In this document: piece by piece, positions 2,783 to 48,388 of the stretch
Layout: every line of letters begins with the position of its first letter
Position numbering within the stretch: position 1 is the stretch's first letter
Source: Escherichia phage SUT_E420
Reading direction: 5' to 3' (one strand)
Length of the DNA: 64,000 bases
Sequence record: OQ990039
Translations under genes and position numbers: made by a program
The notes under the pieces: generated by a model
Seen by the model: only the letters and a program-made list of their open reading frames with translations
The model's database searches: none
What the model was told of the DNA's origin: nothing

Positions 2783-3019
2783 TTAAAGAGCTGTCTCTTT
2801 AATAGACTCCCACTTCTTGGGGTCTTTAAAACCAGGGAGCATATCCTCACTGACATCCCAGTTCTCTTCCATAGAGAAGTCGGGCCATTCATCCCAACTA
2901 CCTTCCAACTCTTCATAACAGGTATCCATTACCTCATGACTAGAAAGTCGTGTATAATCCCTAGCTGACTTATGGGTGGTAGCACGGTTAAAATCATTCT
3001 TTGCCACAAAATTACGCAT
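2783..3019 (-). CDS. Hypothetical acidic small protein
   Basis: 78-aa ORF with GGAGA SD; Trp/acidic-rich C-terminal half. Confidence 0.4.
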   Translation of the reverse strand: MRNFVAKNDFNRATTHKSARDYTRLSSHEVMDTCYEELEGSWDEWPDFSMEENWDVSEDMLPGFKDPKKWESIKETAL

Positions 3020-3036
3020 AGTTTCTCCAAATAAGA

Positions 3037-3050
3037 GGGGCTTTCGCCCC
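3037..3050. terminator. GC hairpin (GGGGC-TTTC-GCCCC), candidate intrinsic terminator
   Basis: Perfect 5-bp GC stem with 4-nt loop and A/T-rich flanks, between two minus-strand genes. Confidence 0.4.
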
Positions 3051-3060
3051 CTGATTTAAA

Positions 3061-3276
3061 TCACTTGCCCAGCAGTTTAAGGATATTTTCCATAATAGTT
3101 TGGGCAGATTTTTCACTCTTGTTGGTTTCAGCCAACTTTAAAGCGAGTTCTTCCTGCTGTTTCTGAATATCAGCTGCGATTTTTTGATCAGCCTCAATAC
3201 GAGCTTGAAGCTCATCAGTGATAGTGGTAAAGGAAGCAACGATTTCAGTAACAGAACGTGGTTTCTTAGAGAACAT
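3061..3276 (-). CDS. Hypothetical coiled-coil small protein
   Basis: 71-aa ORF, AAGGAT SD, host-optimal codons. Confidence 0.45.
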   Translation of the reverse strand: MFSKKPRSVTEIVASFTTITDELQARIEADQKIAADIQKQQEELALKLAETNKSEKSAQTIMENILKLLGK

Positions 3277-3315
3277 AAAAAATATCCTTGATTAGTTAGA
3301 GAATTAGTGGATTGT

Positions 3316-3331
3316 AGGGGCTTCTGCCCCT
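3316..3331. terminator. GC hairpin (AGGGGC-TTCT-GCCCCT), candidate terminator
   Basis: Palindromic GC stem with T-rich tract on the plus side. Confidence 0.4.
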
Positions 3332-3340
3332 ATTTATCTA

Positions 3341-3856
3341 TTACTTCGCTTTACGCTTGCGAGCTGGTTTAGCAGATTTACGAGCAGAATCACCAGTGAA
3401 CTTAATGCCTACACCGTAACACAGAGCGCGAACATTATCTTTACTATACTCTACGCCAAAGATATTTGGCTTAACAGAACCAAACTGTCCACGAGTATCG
3501 CGCAATACATCTGCTGTTGGTTTACGCTTCTGGTTAACTGCCTTCTCGTAGTCTTTCATAGACATACCATTACGAGAGAACAATTCAGCCCCAGCGTTGA
3601 AACTCAAAGATACTGGGACAGATTTGTGGCCGTAATTTTCTACATACATAACCATTTTGTAGGATTTACGGGTGGCATTTTTAGCTTTAGGCTTCTTACG
3701 AATCGGAGCCGGATTATTCAATGCTTGCGCAGCCTGAGCATCGGTAGGATGCTTACGCAGGTGACGTTCCAGACGAGCTTTGCGATTAGCCTCGGTCTGC
3801 GGGAAAGTTTTAACTGCCGGGGCTGCTTGAGTTTTTGCGTTTTTCTGCTTAGCCAT
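3341..3856 (-). CDS. Hypothetical basic protein (Lys/Arg-rich termini)
   Basis: 171-aa ORF, AAGGAAAAC SD, basic N- and C-terminal tails suggesting nucleic-acid binding. Confidence 0.5.
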   Translation of the reverse strand: MAKQKNAKTQAAPAVKTFPQTEANRKARLERHLRKHPTDAQAAQALNNPAPIRKKPKAKNATRKSYKMVMYVENYGHKSVPVSLSFNAGAELFSRNGMSMKDYEKAVNQKRKPTADVLRDTRGQFGSVKPNIFGVEYSKDNVRALCYGVGIKFTGDSARKSAKPARKRKAK

Positions 3857-3894
3857 TATTTGTTTTCCTTTTTGTTTATCAATTTATGAAGTAT

Positions 3895-3923
3895 ATTATA
3901 CGAGAATTTGAAGCGTTTAGCAA
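3895..3923 (-). promoter_or_regulatory. T5-type early promoter (minus strand)
   Basis: Reverse strand: -35 TTGCTA (3918-3923), 17-nt spacer, -10 TATAAT (3895-3900). Confidence 0.5.
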
Positions 3924-3931
3924 ATGAATTT

Positions 3932-4381
3932 TTAATTTATTAACTGTAAGCTTCTTTTAATTTCAGACCTTACTTGCATCAAAAGGACTCCTAAAGTATT
4001 ATCCCCGATGCCTCGGCAAACACCCCAATATGTATCTCCCCAGGTATTTCCTTCGATCAAAGTTGCATTTTCTGTTGCTAACAGTTTATCTCTTAAATCA
4101 GGAATTGCAAACTTTAATCGTAAAAGCTCTAGCATTACATCATCTTTTACTTTATCCCAGTCAGAGCGTAGGGTTAATTTACGTCCTCTACGTTTAGCAA
4201 CTCCTGCATTTAGGGAGCGGAGTACATGAGCTACATCATCTTTTTGGTCGGATTTCATAGCCTGAAAAGCATGTTCTACAGTATCAGCATGCCATATCTC
4301 ATTTAGATATTCGAAAGTAATTGGTGATAAATAAAAGTTAGATAAGAAACTATAAGTACCTTTAAATTCAGTAATCTTCAT
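3932..4381 (-). CDS. NADAR (YbiA-like) domain protein, putative ADP-ribose-processing hydrolase
   Basis: 149 aa. FLSNFY...HAFQAMK...EGNTWGDTYWGV matches NADAR/DUF1768 landmarks. Start overlaps the stop of the upstream ORF. Confidence 0.65.
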   Translation of the reverse strand: MKITEFKGTYSFLSNFYLSPITFEYLNEIWHADTVEHAFQAMKSDQKDDVAHVLRSLNAGVAKRRGRKLTLRSDWDKVKDDVMLELLRLKFAIPDLRDKLLATENATLIEGNTWGDTYWGVCRGIGDNTLGVLLMQVRSEIKRSLQLIN

Positions 4382-4662
4382 TTTTTACGCCCCGCATCTT
4401 TAGCCTCCTCGGCTGTATAGATATACTGATAAGCCCCTTTGGAGTAGGCTGGAGCAGTACACATTTTCTTACGCTCAATCTCTTCTTGAGCTTTTCTTTC
4501 GCGTTCCGCTAATTCTTCGTCCAAATAAACTAAACGTTGTTCTGGAGGAGGTGGAAGACGTGTTTCTGGCTCGCCAATATTAGCCTTTCTTATTTGACGA
4601 GGTGATTGTGCACGTTTTCTCAATGGTTTAAATCCTAATGAATTTGAGTTATAGATCCGCAT
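4378..4662 (-). CDS. Hypothetical protein
   Basis: 94-aa ORF translationally coupled to the NADAR gene; Pro-rich segment and charged helix. Confidence 0.4.
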   Translation of the reverse strand: MRIYNSNSLGFKPLRKRAQSPRQIRKANIGEPETRLPPPPEQRLVYLDEELAERERKAQEEIERKKMCTAPAYSKGAYQYIYTAEEAKDAGRKK

Positions 4663-4689
4663 AAAGCCCTCCTCACTTTCAATACGAAT

Positions 4690-4718
4690 ATTATACTAAA
4701 TTATAGGGCTTTAAGCAA
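4690..4718 (-). promoter_or_regulatory. T5-type early promoter (minus strand)
   Basis: Reverse strand: -35 TTGCTT (4713-4718), 17-nt spacer, -10 TATAAT (4690-4695). Confidence 0.5.
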
Positions 4719-4739
4719 GAGAATTTTTTAATTTATTTA

Positions 4740-5216
4740 TCACATCTCAGCCATTTCAGCTTCAGTAATAACTGTATTACATAAGGCGTCTACAGCCTCA
4801 TTACCACTAATACCAGAATGTCCTTTAACCTTAATAAAGGTAGGGTTAGTATTATGAAAGTTGATATACTGCTGTGTTAATTTAAATGCTTCCTGCCAAA
4901 GTTCTAGATTAAGAGGAACTTCACCATCTGCTTTCTTCCAGCCTTTCCTTTGCCAAGAAAACATCCAACTTTCCATGCCATTTTTGCAATAAGCAGAGTC
5001 AGTATAGATAGCAATTGGTCTATTATCTTTTTTAACAGACCAACGTAGGGCTTCTACGATAGCTGTGAGTTCCATCTCATTATTTGTAGTTTTAGGATTA
5101 TAACCAGATTTAGAACCTAAACGATCGTCGTTATCATCATAGACAATAAAACCCCAAGCACCTGGACCTGGATTAGACTTACAAGCACCATCTGTGTAAA
5201 TGTGGAAAACCGACAT
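4740..5216 (-). CDS. rnhA: Ribonuclease H (RNase HI-like)
   Basis: Start taken at internal ATG (5216) overlapping the upstream stop. MSVFHIYTDGACKSNPGPGAWGF aligns to the RNase HI N-terminus; conserved acidic residues later. Confidence 0.85.
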   Translation of the reverse strand: MSVFHIYTDGACKSNPGPGAWGFIVYDDNDDRLGSKSGYNPKTTNNEMELTAIVEALRWSVKKDNRPIAIYTDSAYCKNGMESWMFSWQRKGWKKADGEVPLNLELWQEAFKLTQQYINFHNTNPTFIKVKGHSGISGNEAVDALCNTVITEAEMAEM

Positions 5217-5497
5217 TATACCTCCCAACTAATTTTAAGACCCATGTCTACAAAGGCGGCTTCTCGGTAGTATTGAGAGAGATGATACCCCTTATCCGAT
5301 AAGGTTTTTAGTACCGATTTAGCGGCTCCTGGCATTTCTCTAGGATTATATAGCCACCTAGCGTAAGGATTATCTCGAATAATTACTTCTGTATTTCCAG
5401 ACTTAGCAGCTTCTACAATCTTTTCTTCTATAAACTTTAGAAAAGCGGGTACTTCTGTTAATCCTGCAAGTTCTTGGGCTTCTTTGGCTGAAATCAT
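5216..5497 (-). CDS. Hypothetical protein
   Basis: 93-aa ORF in an operon-like overlap chain. Confidence 0.4.
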   Translation of the reverse strand: MISAKEAQELAGLTEVPAFLKFIEEKIVEAAKSGNTEVIIRDNPYARWLYNPREMPGAAKSVLKTLSDKGYHLSQYYREAAFVDMGLKISWEV

Positions 5498-5697
5498 GGC
5501 TTTTCACCTTCTGCTACACTTCTGGTTTTTGGTGGGATGGGAGGGTTAGGTTTTATAGCCGCTAATTCCCTATCTAAGAATTCCTCTATTGCTCTATCTA
5601 CAAAGTAGTCATAGGGTAAATGATAATGTTCTGATAGAGTAAGAAGTTTGTGCTCTTGGCTTTCTGTTAAATAAACTTTCTTTCTAAAGAGTCCCAT
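5494..5697 (-). CDS. Small protein, possible ribbon-helix-helix DNA-binding fold
   Basis: 67 aa; KKVYLTESQEHKLLTLSEHYH resembles an RHH beta-strand/helix pattern. Weak. Confidence 0.35.
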   Translation of the reverse strand: MGLFRKKVYLTESQEHKLLTLSEHYHLPYDYFVDRAIEEFLDRELAAIKPNPPIPPKTRSVAEGEKP

Positions 5698-5723
5698 ATG
5701 TGTATCTCCAATCTATAAAATAT

Positions 5724-5752
5724 ATTATATTTAAATTTCACTAAATAAGCAA
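5724..5752 (-). promoter_or_regulatory. T5-type early promoter (minus strand)
   Basis: Reverse strand: -35 TTGCTT (5747-5752), 17-nt spacer, -10 TATAAT (5724-5729). Confidence 0.5.
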
Positions 5753-5769
5753 ATGAAATTTAAATATAA

Positions 5770-5785
5770 TAGCCCCGAAGGGCTA
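5770..5785. terminator. Palindromic hairpin (TAGCCC-CGAA-GGGCTA), bidirectional terminator candidate
   Basis: 6-bp stem, A-run upstream and T-run downstream. Confidence 0.45.
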
Positions 5786-5791
5786 TTTAAA

Positions 5792-6646
5792 TTACACAGT
5801 GAATGGATATGCAATAGCAGGATGGTGTTCGTAACCACGAACAGTAAAATCATCCTTATTTACCCAGGTCAATACATCCTCCAGAGTTCGGATATTTGGA
5901 TTGATTTCTAGAGTAGGAGGTGCAAAGGGTTCACGATCAAATTGCTTATGCTCCATCAAAACATTATACTGATCCTCATAGATATGAAGATTGATAATCT
6001 TCTGGCGTGCAATCCCTGGTTTAAGGCCTGTAATCTGTGCCATTAATGCTAGAAGCGTATAGCACTGAACCATGTTAAATACTTGGCCTAACAGGAAGTC
6101 ATTAGATCTCTGGAAAGAGTTCAGATATAATGTATCTCCCAAAATAGAGAACTGATGAGTATGCATACATGGACGTAAGCAACCCTTTGAGAACTCCCCC
6201 GGATTCCAGAAGGTTAGAATTTCCCCACGATCATCAATGCCCTTTTTCAGATTATGATAAATCTTGGCTAGTTGGTCAAACATAAGACCATCGGAATTAG
6301 TCCACTGACGTCCTTGAACACCATAGACTCGTCCCATATCATCCTCACCTTTACGGTATGGATTGTCTAGCCAAGCTAAGTTTTCATTTGCATTAGCATT
6401 CCATGTGTTAACACCAATAGCGCGGAATTGTGCTGCTGAATCATACCCACGTAGATACCCAATCATTTCCATTATTGCTTGTTTTGCAAACGCCTTACGA
6501 GTAGTAATAAGTGGGAATTCACCTGCACCTACGTTAAAAGTAAAATCTGCATCAATAATGGTGAGGCAACGAACCCCTGTTCTGGGATTCGTTACCCACT
6601 GACCTTCTGATAGAATACGTTTTCCAACTTCTATATACTGATCCAT
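5792..6646 (-). CDS. thyA: Thymidylate synthase
   Basis: 284 aa with ThyA-family sequence character (e.g. FPLITTRK); stop overlaps the frd start. Confidence 0.9.
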
Positions 6647-15283: not shown

Positions 15284-15473
15284 GGGTTTAAACGCCGCTT
15301 TGGAAAACGCATTAATGCAGCACTGGGAAACTGGCTATAAGGATGGTGTTGAATCCTGCGCTACTATGCTAGAAGTTATTGCTAATACCTTAATGGAGAA
15401 AGGCAATAAAGAATTAGCTGAGCTATTAGACAGTATTGGGCAAAACTTCAGAGAACAGGTGAAAAATGCGTAG
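15252..15473 (+). CDS. Hypothetical small protein
   Basis: 73-aa ORF overlapping both neighbours. Confidence 0.4.
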   Translation: MAFSKPMLPDKGLNAALENALMQHWETGYKDGVESCATMLEVIANTLMEKGNKELAELLDSIGQNFREQVKNA

Positions 15474-16281
15474 ATTAATTGTTATTAGCGGTGCAGGTTT
15501 GAGTGTTGAAAGTGGTGTACGAGCTTTTCGTACTGATACTGCTAGTGGTAAAGCATTGTGGGATGATTATGATCTAGAAGAAGTATGTAATATTCATGCC
15601 TTTCGTGGTAATTTTTATCATAAAACCCATATGTTTTACAACAAGCGTCGTGAAGAGCTAAAAACTGTTGAACCCAATCTTGCGCATTTGCGTATCGGTG
15701 AATGGTATAAACAATATCCAGGTCAAGTAGTAAACTTGACTACCAACGTTGATGACCTTATTGAGCGTTCTGGCGTTCCACATAATGACATTCTACACAT
15801 TCATGGATATTTAAAAGAGGTTGTTGTAGCTGATAGCTACAATAGTAGCAATAAACGGATTATTGATGTAGGATACAATTCTATTGATCCAGATGATTAT
15901 AAATGGGTTAAACCTAATGTAATCTTCTTTGGAGAGCATGCTCCAGCATATGCGGAGATGTACAATGTTTTTGATGGTATTACCAGTCAAGATATGATCA
16001 TTGTGGTTGGTTGCTCTAACCAAGTAATTAACTTCTACTGGGAATTATTTCCTGTTCTTAATTTGACTGCTGCCAAGCTAATGGTTGTTAACTACTATGA
16101 TAGTGCCCTAGCGGCGGAACCGAGCTATCAAGGTATGACTCGTAGTGAGATGTACCAGCTGGAAGAACGCGGTATCCCTTACTGGGGTAAAGGTGCGGTA
16201 GATGCTTTCAGTGATCCTGATTTTATTGCTCGTGTAGAAGCTCATTTAGGGGGTAGACCTTATGTGTCAGGAAATAAGTAA
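15466..16281 (+). CDS. Sir2-family (sirtuin-like) NAD-dependent protein
   Basis: 271 aa. N-terminal ISGAGLSVESGVRAFR matches the sirtuin NAD-binding motif GAG(I/L)SxESG(I/V)xxFR; Rossmann-like remainder. Confidence 0.7.
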   Translation: MRRLIVISGAGLSVESGVRAFRTDTASGKALWDDYDLEEVCNIHAFRGNFYHKTHMFYNKRREELKTVEPNLAHLRIGEWYKQYPGQVVNLTTNVDDLIERSGVPHNDILHIHGYLKEVVVADSYNSSNKRIIDVGYNSIDPDDYKWVKPNVIFFGEHAPAYAEMYNVFDGITSQDMIIVVGCSNQVINFYWELFPVLNLTAAKLMVVNYYDSALAAEPSYQGMTRSEMYQLEERGIPYWGKGAVDAFSDPDFIARVEAHLGGRPYVSGNK

Positions 16282-16774
16282 TACTCCAATTATTTTTCTA
16301 GACATTGATGGGGTGCTCAATTCGAGCATCTCCCACTATCATGCACCTGATGATGAAAAGATTTTCTTTGGAAGTGATTGGGTTTTCAAACCGCTTCTCA
16401 AGGCTTTTCAGGACTTTATTCGTCCTTCTCCAATAATGATTGTTGGAGTATCATCTTGGTTCTCTGTCAGAAATGAGATGGAGAACGTTCAGATTATGAC
16501 CGGATTAGGCCTTATCGATCGTTTTCTTGGTACAACGGATTTTACTGGTGGTGGATTATCTAGGGGTAATTCTGTTCTTCGCTTCGTTGAAAAGCATAAG
16601 CTCAAACATTGGTGTGTGCTTGATGATGCGGGTGCTATGATGTATCAGTATCCAACGGTTATAGTCAACGGTAGGACTGGTATAAATCTTCAAGATTTAA
16701 AAGCTGTTAGCTATATGCTAGAATTTAGCCCAGATCTTGAAATGTGTAAATCCTTACAACAATTTAAGGTGTAA
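16262..16774 (+). CDS. HAD-superfamily phosphatase-like protein
   Basis: 170 aa; N-terminal IIFLDIDGVLNS is HAD motif I (DxDG); later VLDD-like acidic motif. Start overlaps the Sir2 gene end. Confidence 0.5.
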   Translation: MCQEISNTPIIFLDIDGVLNSSISHYHAPDDEKIFFGSDWVFKPLLKAFQDFIRPSPIMIVGVSSWFSVRNEMENVQIMTGLGLIDRFLGTTDFTGGGLSRGNSVLRFVEKHKLKHWCVLDDAGAMMYQYPTVIVNGRTGINLQDLKAVSYMLEFSPDLEMCKSLQQFKV

Positions 16775-16776
16775 AT

Positions 16777-17205
16777 ATGTTCAATAATGTATTCTCTAAA
16801 GAAGCTAACCCAATTTTGGTTAACTTTTGGCGTACTCTTCCAGCTAGCCTGTATAATGAGGCTATTAACTCTTTGAAAATATGGTGTGAGAATAACGAAA
16901 TCTACTTTGCTTTTAAAGATGATATTGATGAAGCCCCCTGTATTGGTTTAATTGTTCAGGTAGAGGAGGGTCTTGAAGAGATTGTCGGCTGGAAAGAGTT
17001 AGATGAAATGGGCTTAGTTTTTGCGTTAAACTATAAGCTGTTTATGCCTGCTAAGCATCGCCTCGTTGTTAACTATAAAACTAGTGAATCTCCTGGTTTT
17101 CAAGTTAATGAACGTTACGGTTGGTCTTACTCACCAGAAGAAGTGAATGATGGTATCCAAAAACTTCGCCGTTTCGGGTATATGATCCCAGGTTTAACTG
17201 CTTAA
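16777..17205 (+). CDS. Hypothetical protein, paralog A of a tandem pair
   Basis: 142 aa; shares PCIG...MGL(V/I)xALN...(I/V)PGL blocks with the adjacent downstream ORF. Confidence 0.5.
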   Translation: MFNNVFSKEANPILVNFWRTLPASLYNEAINSLKIWCENNEIYFAFKDDIDEAPCIGLIVQVEEGLEEIVGWKELDEMGLVFALNYKLFMPAKHRLVVNYKTSESPGFQVNERYGWSYSPEEVNDGIQKLRRFGYMIPGLTA

Positions 17206-17214
17206 GGAGGCAGA

Positions 17215-17604
17215 ATGGAACAAGTATATTGGCGTCAGATTGACCCTAGTTTGGTGAAACGTGCGGAGAAGCTGCTACAACGTTGGTTGGGGGTAAGACA
17301 AGCCTCCTTCACTTTTCCTGAGCAGCAAATAGATGATCCATGCATTGGCGTTTTCCTGTCTGGATACGCCAGGGAATGGGAACTGGATTGGAATGAGTTG
17401 TCTGCTATGGGTTTAATTGTTGCCCTAAATTTCTCTTTGTTCCATCCACGTGGTTTTGCCATATGTCGTGTGCCGGATGATGGTTGTTCGCCCCATCTTT
17501 TACAGGTGGAAAATGATATTTGGGAGTACACTCCAGATATTCTCAAAGAAGCTAAAGAACAATTAAACCGTGTTGGGATATATGTTCCGGGATTAAATGA
17601 CTAA
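17215..17604 (+). CDS. Hypothetical protein, paralog B of a tandem pair
   Basis: 129 aa; homologous to the upstream ORF over its conserved blocks; GGAGG SD. Confidence 0.5.
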   Translation: MEQVYWRQIDPSLVKRAEKLLQRWLGVRQASFTFPEQQIDDPCIGVFLSGYAREWELDWNELSAMGLIVALNFSLFHPRGFAICRVPDDGCSPHLLQVENDIWEYTPDILKEAKEQLNRVGIYVPGLND

Positions 17605-45554: not shown

Positions 45555-48388
45555 TCCACAGACTGTTCTCCATCATCTCCTTCTGCTCTAATACGAAAAT
45601 ATAGTTTTCTATTTATTCCTAGAGCATCACTGTTATGAAGAGCAAAATCTGCCTTATTATACATTAATAAATAGTCATAAGTATACTGATTTTCAATACG
45701 TACACTTCTTAGCATTCTATTCTGGGAGTCATAGATTTCCAGAGTATAGAATATACTTTCTATTATATCTTCTTCTGGTATCCTATCCCAAGCTAGTTTT
45801 ACATCTGGGCCTACAAATTCAGTTACATCCCCAGAAGCCGTATTAGTTACCCTAAAATTAGATACTACACTTAGGTTTTTAGCAGAGTTAAGTTCTATAG
45901 ATAAGGTTACTGGAGAACTTCTTCTACCATTTATATCCACAGCCCTTATTTCAAATATCGCTAAGCCTGCAGGCTCTCCAATTATCTCTTGGATCATGCG
46001 TTCATTGGGATTTGTTTCTAGTTGCTGCACAATATAAGGCTCAGCATGCCCGGAATGCACGATAGAGTAATAAACTACGTTATTAGTTAAGCTTGGAAGC
46101 CAAGATAACTCACCATTTTTTCCTATAGAACCAACTAAACCACCGGGTGTAGGAGTATATTTAAAATCTCTAGGAGGAAGAACGTTGTTACTAATATCTG
46201 GTATATCATTACCACTATTATCTACTTGATCAGAGTTGATAAATACATCTTCCCCATACTCCTGTAGAGTAACATTTATCTTTCCTTCTCTAGAGTTTTC
46301 GACTTCATCTACTAAAAAGTACTTCTTATCCCATCCGTAACGGTCGTATGTAAATGCAATAGCATCGTTAGGCTCAATACCAATGAATTGATATGGTAAA
46401 GAAAATGAGAGGGTTCTAGAATACCTAGATTTCTTAAGTTCTCTGTCTGCAAAACTTCTAGCAGTATAGTAGTTAGTTATATTTGCAAAAGATAATTGTA
46501 ATTTTTTATCTAAATTTTTATCCTGCTCTTTATATTTAGAGTTATAAAAGGTAATAGAGTTAGTTTTCCAGCTAAGAGCTGGGTCTACTATGGATGCTTG
46601 AACTGAGTTGAATTTATTTCTACCAGTAGTATCTGATAGCTCTAAATCACCATAAGTATCCAGAAAATTAATCTCTAATGGAGTATTAGAATATTTTTCT
46701 ACAGTAATCCTATATTGACCAGATAAGTTGTTAATAGCCCCACCGTAGGATTCTAGTAAACCTTGCACATTTTTAAATACTGATTCAGATGTATCTAGAA
46801 TAGTATTCATTTGTACTATTTGTCTATTTTCTGCTAATGGATCAGTCCACCCAACATATCTCCAGTATGGCTGCCAGGATACTTGGTAAGATTCATCTAT
46901 AATATCTAAGATAGCAGCTTCTTGTACCAATTGTTGTAGGGGGAACTGATCAATAGCAATGTTTGCACCATACCTATCTGAAGTTAAGTAGTCAAGTGTT
47001 TGCCAAATACCATTTAAACTAGTACTATTAGCAGTTACTCTACCATCAGGATGATAGATTTTTATCTTCTTACCCTGAATCTCAGCACTAACTTCTGGAA
47101 TCTCAGTTCTATTTTCATTAATAGTAAAGCGTACTACCGCGTATGCAGTATCTAATAATTTATATCTAGTATCCCAGTACTCAGGCCCATTACCGTTCAT
47201 ATTTTGGAGATAGAACCCACGTTCCTTCGCTATATTTACTAATACTTCAGAAGCCGTTTGATCAGCTTTTCCATGATAAGTCCAAATCCTTATATCACCA
47301 TTACCATCATTATATTTATATTCCTGACCGTGCACAGAAGGACTACTAGAAGATATTCCTGATGCTATTCTTTGCATGGTGTCTCCTGCTACTTTTTTAA
47401 CACCGAAACAGGTTCTAGCAGAGCTATCATTAGAGTCCATACAAATCATAGGGTTATCCCCAAAGGAAAAGTCAAGAAAACCGTCTATCTCTCCTTCAGC
47501 AAAAGCGTATACTACGTAAACTATATTAGGATTGTGTAATTCCGTATCCGCAAAAATAGGTATTCCCGGTATTTTCTGTACACCATAAACTACTGGTATA
47601 TACTTAGCAGCAAGGTTAAAATCTATATCTACTTCTTTAGTAACAGTCTCATAATACTTTTTAAGACTATAACTTCTAGATAGTCCAAATAGCTTTTTCT
47701 TAGACTTTAGCTTGTATCTTTCTTCCTGTACCTGATACTTTGCTAGAATAGAGATACTTTTATTGGCATGAAAGAACCCATAATCTTCCTGGTATTCAAG
47801 TCTTTTAGCCCCGTTAGATGGAACTAATTGTCCTGCTACAACCTCAAGCCCTCTATGAGAAGCATCATCAGTAAACCTACCGTTAACCCTATCAAAATCA
47901 TAGAATTGGTTAGAACAATTCCAAGTAATTGTAGAGGTTCCAACCCCAGAAGTACTAATGTTGTCCTTAATACCTCCACCAGTAATTCTCCCTCTAAAGT
48001 ATAATAAAGGGCCATTTGTGTCTGGGTCTACAGGTAAAATAGAACCATCCTCTGTAATAATTGCTTGGTGGATTGATACTAGTCTATCTAAAAAGGATAC
48101 ACCATTCTGCACTAATTTCAGTACTTCATCCTGTGCTGTACCTGTAATAGTAAAAGATAGGCTGCCAATAGATAAATCTCTATTTTGTTTATGTGTGCTA
48201 ATAGACTTAACTTTACCGGCCTGGTACAAAATACCATTATATAGTACATCTCTAAAATAGTCAGTTAAGTAAATAAAAGCAGTACTAGTACCTGTAGAGC
48301 CGGGTAATTCTAGAGAAATTAGACTAGCAGTTTTTATTCTGCTATTATTTTTTAAGTAGTTTCTAGCACTATCTAATATTTTTTTCAT
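45539..48388 (-). CDS. Baseplate hub protein (T5 pb3-like, tentative)
   Basis: 949 aa, matching the recalled T5 pb3 length; sits between the distal tail protein and the pb4-like gene. Confidence 0.5.
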   Translation of the reverse strand: MKKILDSARNYLKNNSRIKTASLISLELPGSTGTSTAFIYLTDYFRDVLYNGILYQAGKVKSISTHKQNRDLSIGSLSFTITGTAQDEVLKLVQNGVSFLDRLVSIHQAIITEDGSILPVDPDTNGPLLYFRGRITGGGIKDNISTSGVGTSTITWNCSNQFYDFDRVNGRFTDDASHRGLEVVAGQLVPSNGAKRLEYQEDYGFFHANKSISILAKYQVQEERYKLKSKKKLFGLSRSYSLKKYYETVTKEVDIDFNLAAKYIPVVYGVQKIPGIPIFADTELHNPNIVYVVYAFAEGEIDGFLDFSFGDNPMICMDSNDSSARTCFGVKKVAGDTMQRIASGISSSSPSVHGQEYKYNDGNGDIRIWTYHGKADQTASEVLVNIAKERGFYLQNMNGNGPEYWDTRYKLLDTAYAVVRFTINENRTEIPEVSAEIQGKKIKIYHPDGRVTANSTSLNGIWQTLDYLTSDRYGANIAIDQFPLQQLVQEAAILDIIDESYQVSWQPYWRYVGWTDPLAENRQIVQMNTILDTSESVFKNVQGLLESYGGAINNLSGQYRITVEKYSNTPLEINFLDTYGDLELSDTTGRNKFNSVQASIVDPALSWKTNSITFYNSKYKEQDKNLDKKLQLSFANITNYYTARSFADRELKKSRYSRTLSFSLPYQFIGIEPNDAIAFTYDRYGWDKKYFLVDEVENSREGKINVTLQEYGEDVFINSDQVDNSGNDIPDISNNVLPPRDFKYTPTPGGLVGSIGKNGELSWLPSLTNNVVYYSIVHSGHAEPYIVQQLETNPNERMIQEIIGEPAGLAIFEIRAVDINGRRSSPVTLSIELNSAKNLSVVSNFRVTNTASGDVTEFVGPDVKLAWDRIPEEDIIESIFYTLEIYDSQNRMLRSVRIENQYTYDYLLMYNKADFALHNSDALGINRKLYFRIRAEGDDGEQSVEWASI

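Follow-up and report, generated by a model that had tools for sequence, protein, structure and literature searches.

The 64,000-nucleotide (nt) stretch of Escherichia phage SUT_E420 analysed here (sequence record OQ990039; the window) encodes a NADAR protein that, as judged from near-identity at the protein level, is an orthologue of AdfN^Bas32, an experimentally characterized anti-DarTG1 factor, and as such is already known. The gene is a 149-codon open reading frame (ORF) with an ATG start on the minus strand (3932..4381, including a TAA stop at 3932-3934). In a tblastn search with the window NADAR, gene bas33_0070 of Escherichia phage HildyBeyeler (Bas33) was found at 99.3% identity, and pairwise alignment of the two proteins yielded 148 identical residues out of 149. 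The sole difference, E104 in the window protein versus K104 in Bas33, falls at a non-conserved position where the family consensus is Gly. Bas32 (IrisVonRoten) and Bas33 encode identical NADAR proteins, which were named AdfN^Bas32 (Johannesman et al., Nat Commun 2025, PMC11825919). The window protein and AdfN^Bas32 have equal length, come from phages of the same genus, Tequintavirus, and are encoded in the same slot between homologues of T5.090 and T5.089. Both are also orphans with no adjoining toxin gene, the flanks of the window gene encoding a T5.090-like protein without a Pfam match, a DUF7022 protein and an RNase H, with no ADP-ribosyltransferase (ART) toxin adjacent. The carrier genomes differ. 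Over 3 kb (positions 3000-6000) the window shares 100% identity with Escherichia phages SUT_E1520 and SUT_E520 and 99.9% with T5_ev212. Judged from these near-identical phages and from a gene order that agrees with that of Tequintavirus EC148, gene coordinates included, over the first ~5.2 kb, the phage is a T5-like Tequintavirus (Demerecviridae, Markadamsvirinae).

AdfN^Bas32 neutralizes DarT1 in uninfected E. coli, and on DarTG1 hosts its ectopic expression fully restores the titres of the phages RB69, T5 and Bas25, while it is without effect against the thymidine-modifying DarTG2, as tested with T5 (Johannesman et al., 2025). A preliminary description of this DNA had proposed the phage NADAR as a candidate counter-defence enzyme against guanine ADP-ribosylation by DarT-type toxins. 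Given the near-identity to AdfN^Bas32, this hypothesis has already passed an experimental test on a protein that is essentially the same. Guanine-ADP-ribose (G-ADPr) hydrolysis by the Bas32/Bas33 protein is deduced from DarT1 neutralization in vivo, the in vitro reaction having been shown for other NADARs.

The domain assignment is supported by a significant, full-length profile match. The 149-residue protein matches Pfam PF08719 (NADAR) with 78.8 bits (E 7.2e-22; gathering score 35.1 bits) over profile positions 9-163 of 163 and PHROG 1017 at E 1e-44. E. coli YbiA (PDB 2b3w, E 3e-15) is the closest solved structure, and Phytophthora nicotianae NADAR (PnNADAR, 8bau) is matched at E 7e-7. The window protein displays the NADAR/YbiA fold, a helical core with two small flanking beta-sheets. 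Residues 37-43 read HAFQAMK and residues 110-121 read EGNTWGDTYWGV. The preliminary description, which named no strand, had recognized a NADAR/YbiA-like ORF from such landmarks, and this stands: the profile match lies far beyond chance, both motifs were found and the catalytic residues are present. Its placement of the gene among small genes also agrees with neighbouring products of 94, 171, 71 and 78 residues. Two antisense frames opposite the NADAR ORF (4008..4229 and 4030..4197) are short and unsupported.

Family placement and active-site residues

Residue and profile comparisons point to a compact, stand-alone NADAR of the Glu type as the best description of the window protein. Its third catalytic acid is the YbiA-type Glu (E110, motif L108-I109-E110), located at the PnNADAR E125 position, the YbiA-family signature of de Souza and Aravind, and invariant in the clade. 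In other respects the protein departs from YbiA. It scores 66.6 bits on TIGR02464 (riboflavin-intermediate N-glycosidase, COG3236), below the trusted cutoff of 73.7, and membership in that family was rejected on this basis. It has Lys63 where YbiA has Ala, and its gene is found in a phage accessory context, with no riboflavin fusion and no rib genes in the phage early block. Cells are not rescued from DarT1 by YbiA, in contrast to the rescue seen with AdfN^Bas32 by Johannesman et al. (2025). In the published tree AdfN^Bas32 is located near two archaeal NADARs (Johannesman et al., 2025).

The window protein is not a DarG1, as it lacks both the N-terminal extension and a neighbouring darT gene. 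Aligned with DarG1 (BC4488 subfamily; G. lovleyi 8bat, E. coli C7), it shows 16% identity over 122 residues. The DarG1 extension (beta1-beta2-alpha1) is missing from the shorter window protein (149 vs 219 residues), and no darT1 or other ART gene adjoins the window locus. As mapped through PnNADAR, the catalytic Asp of DarG1 (C7 D171) is positioned two residues earlier than the Glu of the window protein; the Glu in place of Asp was the third ground on which DarG1 membership was rejected. A PADLOC scan returned no DarG model match at E up to 0.01 and only a weak match to the candidate model PDC-M42C (E 5e-7).

The T4 protein gp30.3 (AdfN^T4) is likewise an orphan NADAR countering DarTG1, and the numbering of its E36/K43 helix motif equals that of the window protein. 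However, there is no detectable BLASTP similarity between the two (E 1.3), hhalign covers the N-terminal 61 columns only, and the T4 family ('phage NADAR') has His for the conserved Glu that the window protein keeps as E110. Membership in the gp30.3 group was rejected for these reasons. The two also differ in their published behaviour, full activity of AdfN^T4 requiring the T-even infection context whereas AdfN^Bas32 acts alone (Johannesman et al., 2025).

Most ligand-contacting residues of PnNADAR have counterparts in the window protein. Schuller et al. (2023, PMC11543638) list the residues through which PnNADAR contacts ADP-ribose, along with those required in E. coli C7 DarG1. We transferred them via profile alignment because a single-sequence phmmer alignment to 8bau is out of register by three residues around the E/K motif; the 8bau chain index is offset by +2 from the numbering of the paper, and with this offset all nine listed residues agree in identity. 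PnNADAR E43, K50, K75, R79, D86, W89, E125, D130 and W133 correspond to E36, K43, K63, R67, D74, W75, E110, D116 and W119 of the window protein, while Y84 and R93 are replaced by R72 and K79, respectively. Across 65 homologues of 46-60% identity, E36, K43, E110, D116 and W119 do not vary, and K63 and W75 hardly do. The conserved Glu and Lys seven residues apart (Pn E43/K50; C7 E88/K95) are E36/K43 in VEHAFQAMK, and residues of this type touch the distal ribose and phosphates (Schuller et al., 2023). From such correspondences we infer the roles of individual residues in the window protein.

Locus organization and distribution

The NADAR gene is part of a leftward block consisting of rnh, the T5.090-like gene, NADAR and the DUF7022 gene (T5.089-like), located downstream of nrdA, nrdB, frd and thy (Table 1). 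Its ATG overlaps the stop codon of the upstream gene by 4 nt (ATGA), and inspection of the sequence directly ahead of the ATG revealed no strong Shine-Dalgarno motif. This combination suggests that NADAR translation is coupled to that of the 94-residue gene, and the two are probably co-transcribed. A sigma-70-type promoter upstream of the T5.090-like gene likely drives this two-gene unit. The consensus promoter scan did not flag it, and its region is collinear and nearly identical with an annotated 'promoter' in the T5 RefSeq record (46337..46411). The P-H207 homologue, found directly downstream of the NADAR stop at the right edge of the cassette, is predicted to drive the DUF7022 gene. Position in the thy-frd-nrd-rnh-pol block, within second-step-transfer DNA, points to early expression of the NADAR gene.

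Table 1. Positions of the NADAR locus features and of other genes discussed, in window coordinates.
Feature	Position	Strand	Basis or remark
adfN-type NADAR gene, 149 residues	3932..4381	minus	orthologue of Bas32/Bas33 AdfN, by near-identity
Upstream gene, 94 residues, T5.090 homologue, PHROG 4593, no assigned function	4378..4662	minus	homology
Putative sigma-70-type promoter, TTGCTT-17 nt-TATAAT	4690..4718	minus	upstream of T5.090-like gene; homology with T5 annotation
P-H207 homologue, TTGCTA-17 nt-TATAAT	3895..3923	minus	promoter-scan match and T5 annotation 'promoter P-H 207'
Accessory cassette, NADAR ORF plus diverged 3' tail of upstream gene	3932..4446	minus	alignment with T5
DUF7022 gene	3341..3856		T5.089-like
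71-residue ORF, PHROG 2380	3061-3276	minus	also in EC148, wrongly labelled 'tail length tape-measure protein'
cREC_REC protein gene	340-657	minus	cyclic-phosphate-processing receiver
HNH_3 homing-endonuclease-like ORF, 160 residues	8388-8870	minus	between nrdB and nrdA
Sir2 gene	15466..16281	plus	Pfam SIR2, E 4e-24; 93% identical to T5.102 of phage T5
HAD_SAK_2 gene	16262-16774	plus	'Swiss Army Knife' RNA-repair HAD; overlaps Sir2 gene by 20 nt
DUF7415 gene	16777-17205	plus	two DUF7415 repeats, Pfam E 1e-36
DUF7415 gene, tandem paralogue of the preceding	17215-17604	plus	two DUF7415 repeats, Pfam E 9e-32

Pairwise alignment of window positions 3300-4700 with the T5 locus reveals a clean indel. 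The T5 order is T5.090, P-H207 and T5.089, with no gene in between, and the extra ~445 bp of the window hold the NADAR ORF. Identity with T5 falls within ~20 codons of the end of the T5.090 homologue, representing the left cassette edge, and returns at the NADAR stop. When carriers are defined as records covering at least 80% of the locus, the gene is present in 94 of the 434 phage records matching the locus, about one fifth of these T5-like phages. Many non-carriers are covered to 64% in two pieces, corresponding to the T5 configuration. Matches with 93% coverage in two pieces are explained by the 71-residue ORF, another small accessory gene, which is absent at the same position from Bas33 and T5.

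Sequence comparisons within the clade bear on selection and gain of the gene. Among four T5-like orthologues (window, Bas33, OSYSP and FGS029) the ratio of nonsynonymous to synonymous substitution rates (dN/dS) is 0.014-0.098, and the 90%-identity cluster of the NADAR protein contains 235 member sequences. A second allele, 60% identical, is found in the Epseptimavirus UTK0009 (Salmonella phage vB_SenS_UTK0009, NC_111487; our locus L086, 2489-2938). There the order is rnh, NADAR, T5.090-like and DUF7022-like, which places NADAR one slot upstream of its position in the window. With two alleles in adjacent slots, the early block of the Markadamsvirinae therefore received NADAR genes at least twice. 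This accessory pattern, combined with the DarTG1 sensitivity of the NADAR-less phage T5 (Johannesman et al., 2025), fits an accessory counter-defence gene with an arms-race distribution. Outside this group, the first 60 kb of phi92, a relative of Bas60, contain no NADAR; record MZ501101, considered as the Bas60 record, was rejected as it is not Bas60.

Annotation of this locus in public records is uneven. GenBank labels for the same NADAR gene include 'swarming motility protein YbiA', 'GTP cyclohydrolase II', 'DUF1768 domain-containing protein', 'NADAR domain-containing protein' and 'hypothetical protein', spread inconsistently over roughly a hundred records of T5-like phages. Some records name the flanking DUF7022 gene 'virion structural protein', and T5-like sequences have been deposited as Listeria or Campylobacter phages (LM 4-11-1, C13), probably through mislabelling.

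More distant relatives are found in phage-like contigs and in bacterial genomes. The closest outside the T5-like phages share 52-61% identity and are located on phage-like contigs (our loci L091/L092, 5001-5444; L006, 3974-4423; L093, 5001-5450). Some relatives of ~55% identity are part of a conserved cassette of Metallophos, RNA-ligase-like, NADAR, KTI12/AAA_33 kinase and Thg1 genes, and one of 61% identity adjoins a YAcAr/SLOG gene and 7-deazaguanine genes (QueC/PTPS/GTP cyclohydrolase I). In GTDB genomes the motif EGNxW..D.[YF]W retrieved 517 relatives, the best being 44-54% identical and mostly from metagenome-assembled genomes. In Lachnospiraceae, genes for a NAD-dependent DNA ligase, DUF3990/DUF3791, NADAR, LPD11, YodL-like and Macro proteins form a row (Sellimonas catena, L049, 639-6396) that recurs in similar form at ten more loci. 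The DUF3990/DUF3791 proteins show weak ART-PolyVal similarity, and the row resembles an island of a mobile element made up of stand-alone 'polyvalent protein' domains, both ADP-ribose-removing folds among them. Three to four NADAR copies each are present on one Bryobacterales chromosome (OZ241991.1; L005, L007, L013 and L023) and on several Pseudomonadales/Azotimanducaceae chromosomes. Their conserved flanks in Bryobacterales and gammaproteobacteria, which include DUF3560 or Toprim_3/DUF7146 genes, suggest multi-copy integrative elements. A plasmid or conjugative origin, considered in view of Toprim_3/DUF7146, DUF3560, LPD11 and YodL neighbours in some bacteria, was set aside, as only 30 of the 72,556 PLSDB plasmids, mostly non-mobilizable megaplasmids, hold a NADAR relative. 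Long NADAR-containing open frames in the bacterial loci were rejected as mostly read-through artefacts of genomes with 60-75% GC.

The Sir2 gene of the window does not belong to the NADAR cassette. The preliminary description had linked the two genes in a joint manipulation of ADP-ribose/NAD chemistry, a proposal that finds no support: they are 11 kb apart on opposite strands, and T5 carries Sir2 (T5.102) but no NADAR, so that the two genes do not co-vary and functional coupling was rejected. The Sir2, HAD_SAK_2 and cREC_REC genes appear to be part of the T5-like core and to have no relation to the cassette, T5 having annotated genes at corresponding positions. The tandem DUF7415 genes are located directly downstream of the Sir2/HAD pair. 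In the nrdB-nrdA gap, where the window has an HNH_3 ORF, T5 has a different HNH gene (hegH) and EC148 none.

Proposed mechanism and alternative explanations

The window protein very probably acts as a NADAR-fold ADP-ribosyl glycohydrolase that, as an orthologue of AdfN^Bas32, reverses the DarT1 lesion in phage DNA. The domain, fold, conserved residues, orthology and cassette structure come from the present analysis, and DarT1 neutralization and phage rescue from published work on the Bas32/Bas33 protein. In the proposed sequence of events, host sigma-70 RNA polymerase probably transcribes NADAR as the second gene of a two-gene unit, together with early replication and nucleotide-metabolism genes. 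In a DarTG1 host, DarT1 would ADP-ribosylate the N2 of guanine in phage DNA and thereby block replication. NADAR would bind the ADP-ribose moiety and cleave the ribose-guanine N-glycosidic bond, yielding unmodified DNA on which replication could resume. The target would be the lesion rather than the toxin, and thymidine ADP-ribosylation by DarT2 would not be reversed. We infer that the gene protects its own phage in this way.

Several points weigh against this assignment. Our literature search found no deletion of the NADAR gene in a T5-like phage, the published evidence for the clade consisting of ectopic expression, and no in vitro hydrolysis assay for the T5-type clade, the T4 protein having been used in the dot-blot assay. 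YbiA hydrolyses G-ADPr in vitro yet gives cells no protection from DarT1, and fold and catalytic residues alone therefore do not predict anti-DarT activity. The promoter scan of the region gave no excess over shuffled sequence (12 found, 13 expected), nor did a terminator scan; the promoters were therefore assigned by their collinearity with those annotated in T5. The early timing is likewise a prediction from gene position. Lastly, the RNA-repair-like or SLOG/Macro contexts of the closest non-T5 relatives hint at other or additional substrates.

These contexts lend some weight to a reading in which the main role of the protein concerns soluble ADP-ribose derivatives or RNA-repair by-products, such as Tpt1/KptA-type reaction products or immune signals derived from NAD, and DarT1 reversal is a side activity of over-expression. 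Relatives in the Metallophos/RNA-ligase-like/kinase/Thg1 cassette, next to a YAcAr/SLOG gene and, in Lachnospiraceae, paired with Macro domain, NAD ligase and LPD11/YodL genes would all be in keeping with it, as would the cREC_REC and HAD_SAK_2 proteins encoded in the window. However, no such partner gene is adjacent in T5-like phages, and the cREC and HAD genes belong to the core set and lie kilobases from the NADAR gene, with T5 counterparts under other names (T5.084, T5.105; by annotation only). DarT1 neutralization has in vivo evidence behind it (Johannesman et al., 2025) whereas soluble substrates have none. We therefore regard a primarily soluble substrate as unlikely, although it is compatible with lesion reversal being one of the activities of the protein. 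Less probable still is a housekeeping YbiA-type N-glycosidase that destroys reactive riboflavin-pathway intermediates (COG3236/TIGR02464), as implied by the GenBank labels 'swarming motility protein YbiA', 'GTP cyclohydrolase II' and 'riboflavin biosynthesis protein'. The TIGR02464 score (66.6) does not reach the trusted cutoff (73.7), the locus has neither riboflavin genes nor a RibA/RibD fusion, and riboflavin damage control is no obvious need for an accessory gene of a lytic phage. In addition, K63, equivalent to a Lys that DarG1 needs in vivo, is present where YbiA has Ala, and AdfN^Bas32 of the identical clade neutralizes DarT1 (Johannesman et al., 2025) while YbiA does not.

We give almost no credence to a decaying or unexpressed passenger ORF with no present function. 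The absence of the gene from most T5-like phages and the lack of a strong Shine-Dalgarno motif of its own could be read in that direction, but the 149 residues are intact in every orthologue inspected, all catalytic residues are kept and dN/dS is 0.01-0.10. The 4 nt shared with the upstream gene speak for coupled translation, and the 235 members of the 90%-identity cluster likewise argue against decay.

Substrate range and significance

Lys63 represents a candidate determinant of DarT1 detoxification. It aligns with K115 of E. coli C7 DarG1 and K75 of PnNADAR, and K115 of DarG1 is dispensable for catalysis but essential for the rescue of cells from DarT1 (Schuller et al., 2023). Lys occupies this position in DarG1 and AdfN^Bas32, both of which rescue cells. 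The equivalent residue is Ala in E. coli YbiA and, by hhalign, Gln in T4 gp30.3, two proteins that hydrolyse G-ADPr in vitro without rescuing uninfected cells from DarT1. Based on this correlation over four proteins, Lys63 may decide whether a NADAR detoxifies DarT1 unaided.

The substrate range of the T5-type proteins could extend beyond guanine. Glu-type (YbiA/NADAR) enzymes remove both G-ADPr and cytidine-ADP-ribose from DNA and RNA, and the latter is not removed by DarG1 or the T4 protein. The window protein falls on the Glu side of the superfamily and has relatives in RNA-repair, SLOG and Macro cassettes, so that a broad eraser is conceivable. We tentatively raise the possibility that T5-type AdfN is an eraser of base ADP-ribosylation acting against ART defences beyond DarTG1, perhaps recruited from phage ADP-ribose/RNA-repair modules and not from a bacterial antitoxin.

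The analysis independently recovered, from raw sequence, a counter-defence gene with a function experimentally established in 2025. The scientific value that is left lies in the phenotype of the native phage, in the substrate range of the Glu-type clade and in the question of why DarT1 is detoxified here but not by YbiA, the structurally closest protein. The proper annotation of the gene in T5-like records is anti-DarT1 NADAR (AdfN). Whether a T5-like phage forms plaques on E. coli or Salmonella carrying DarTG1 should be predictable from the presence of the cassette, which is relevant to the choice of phages for therapy or biocontrol.
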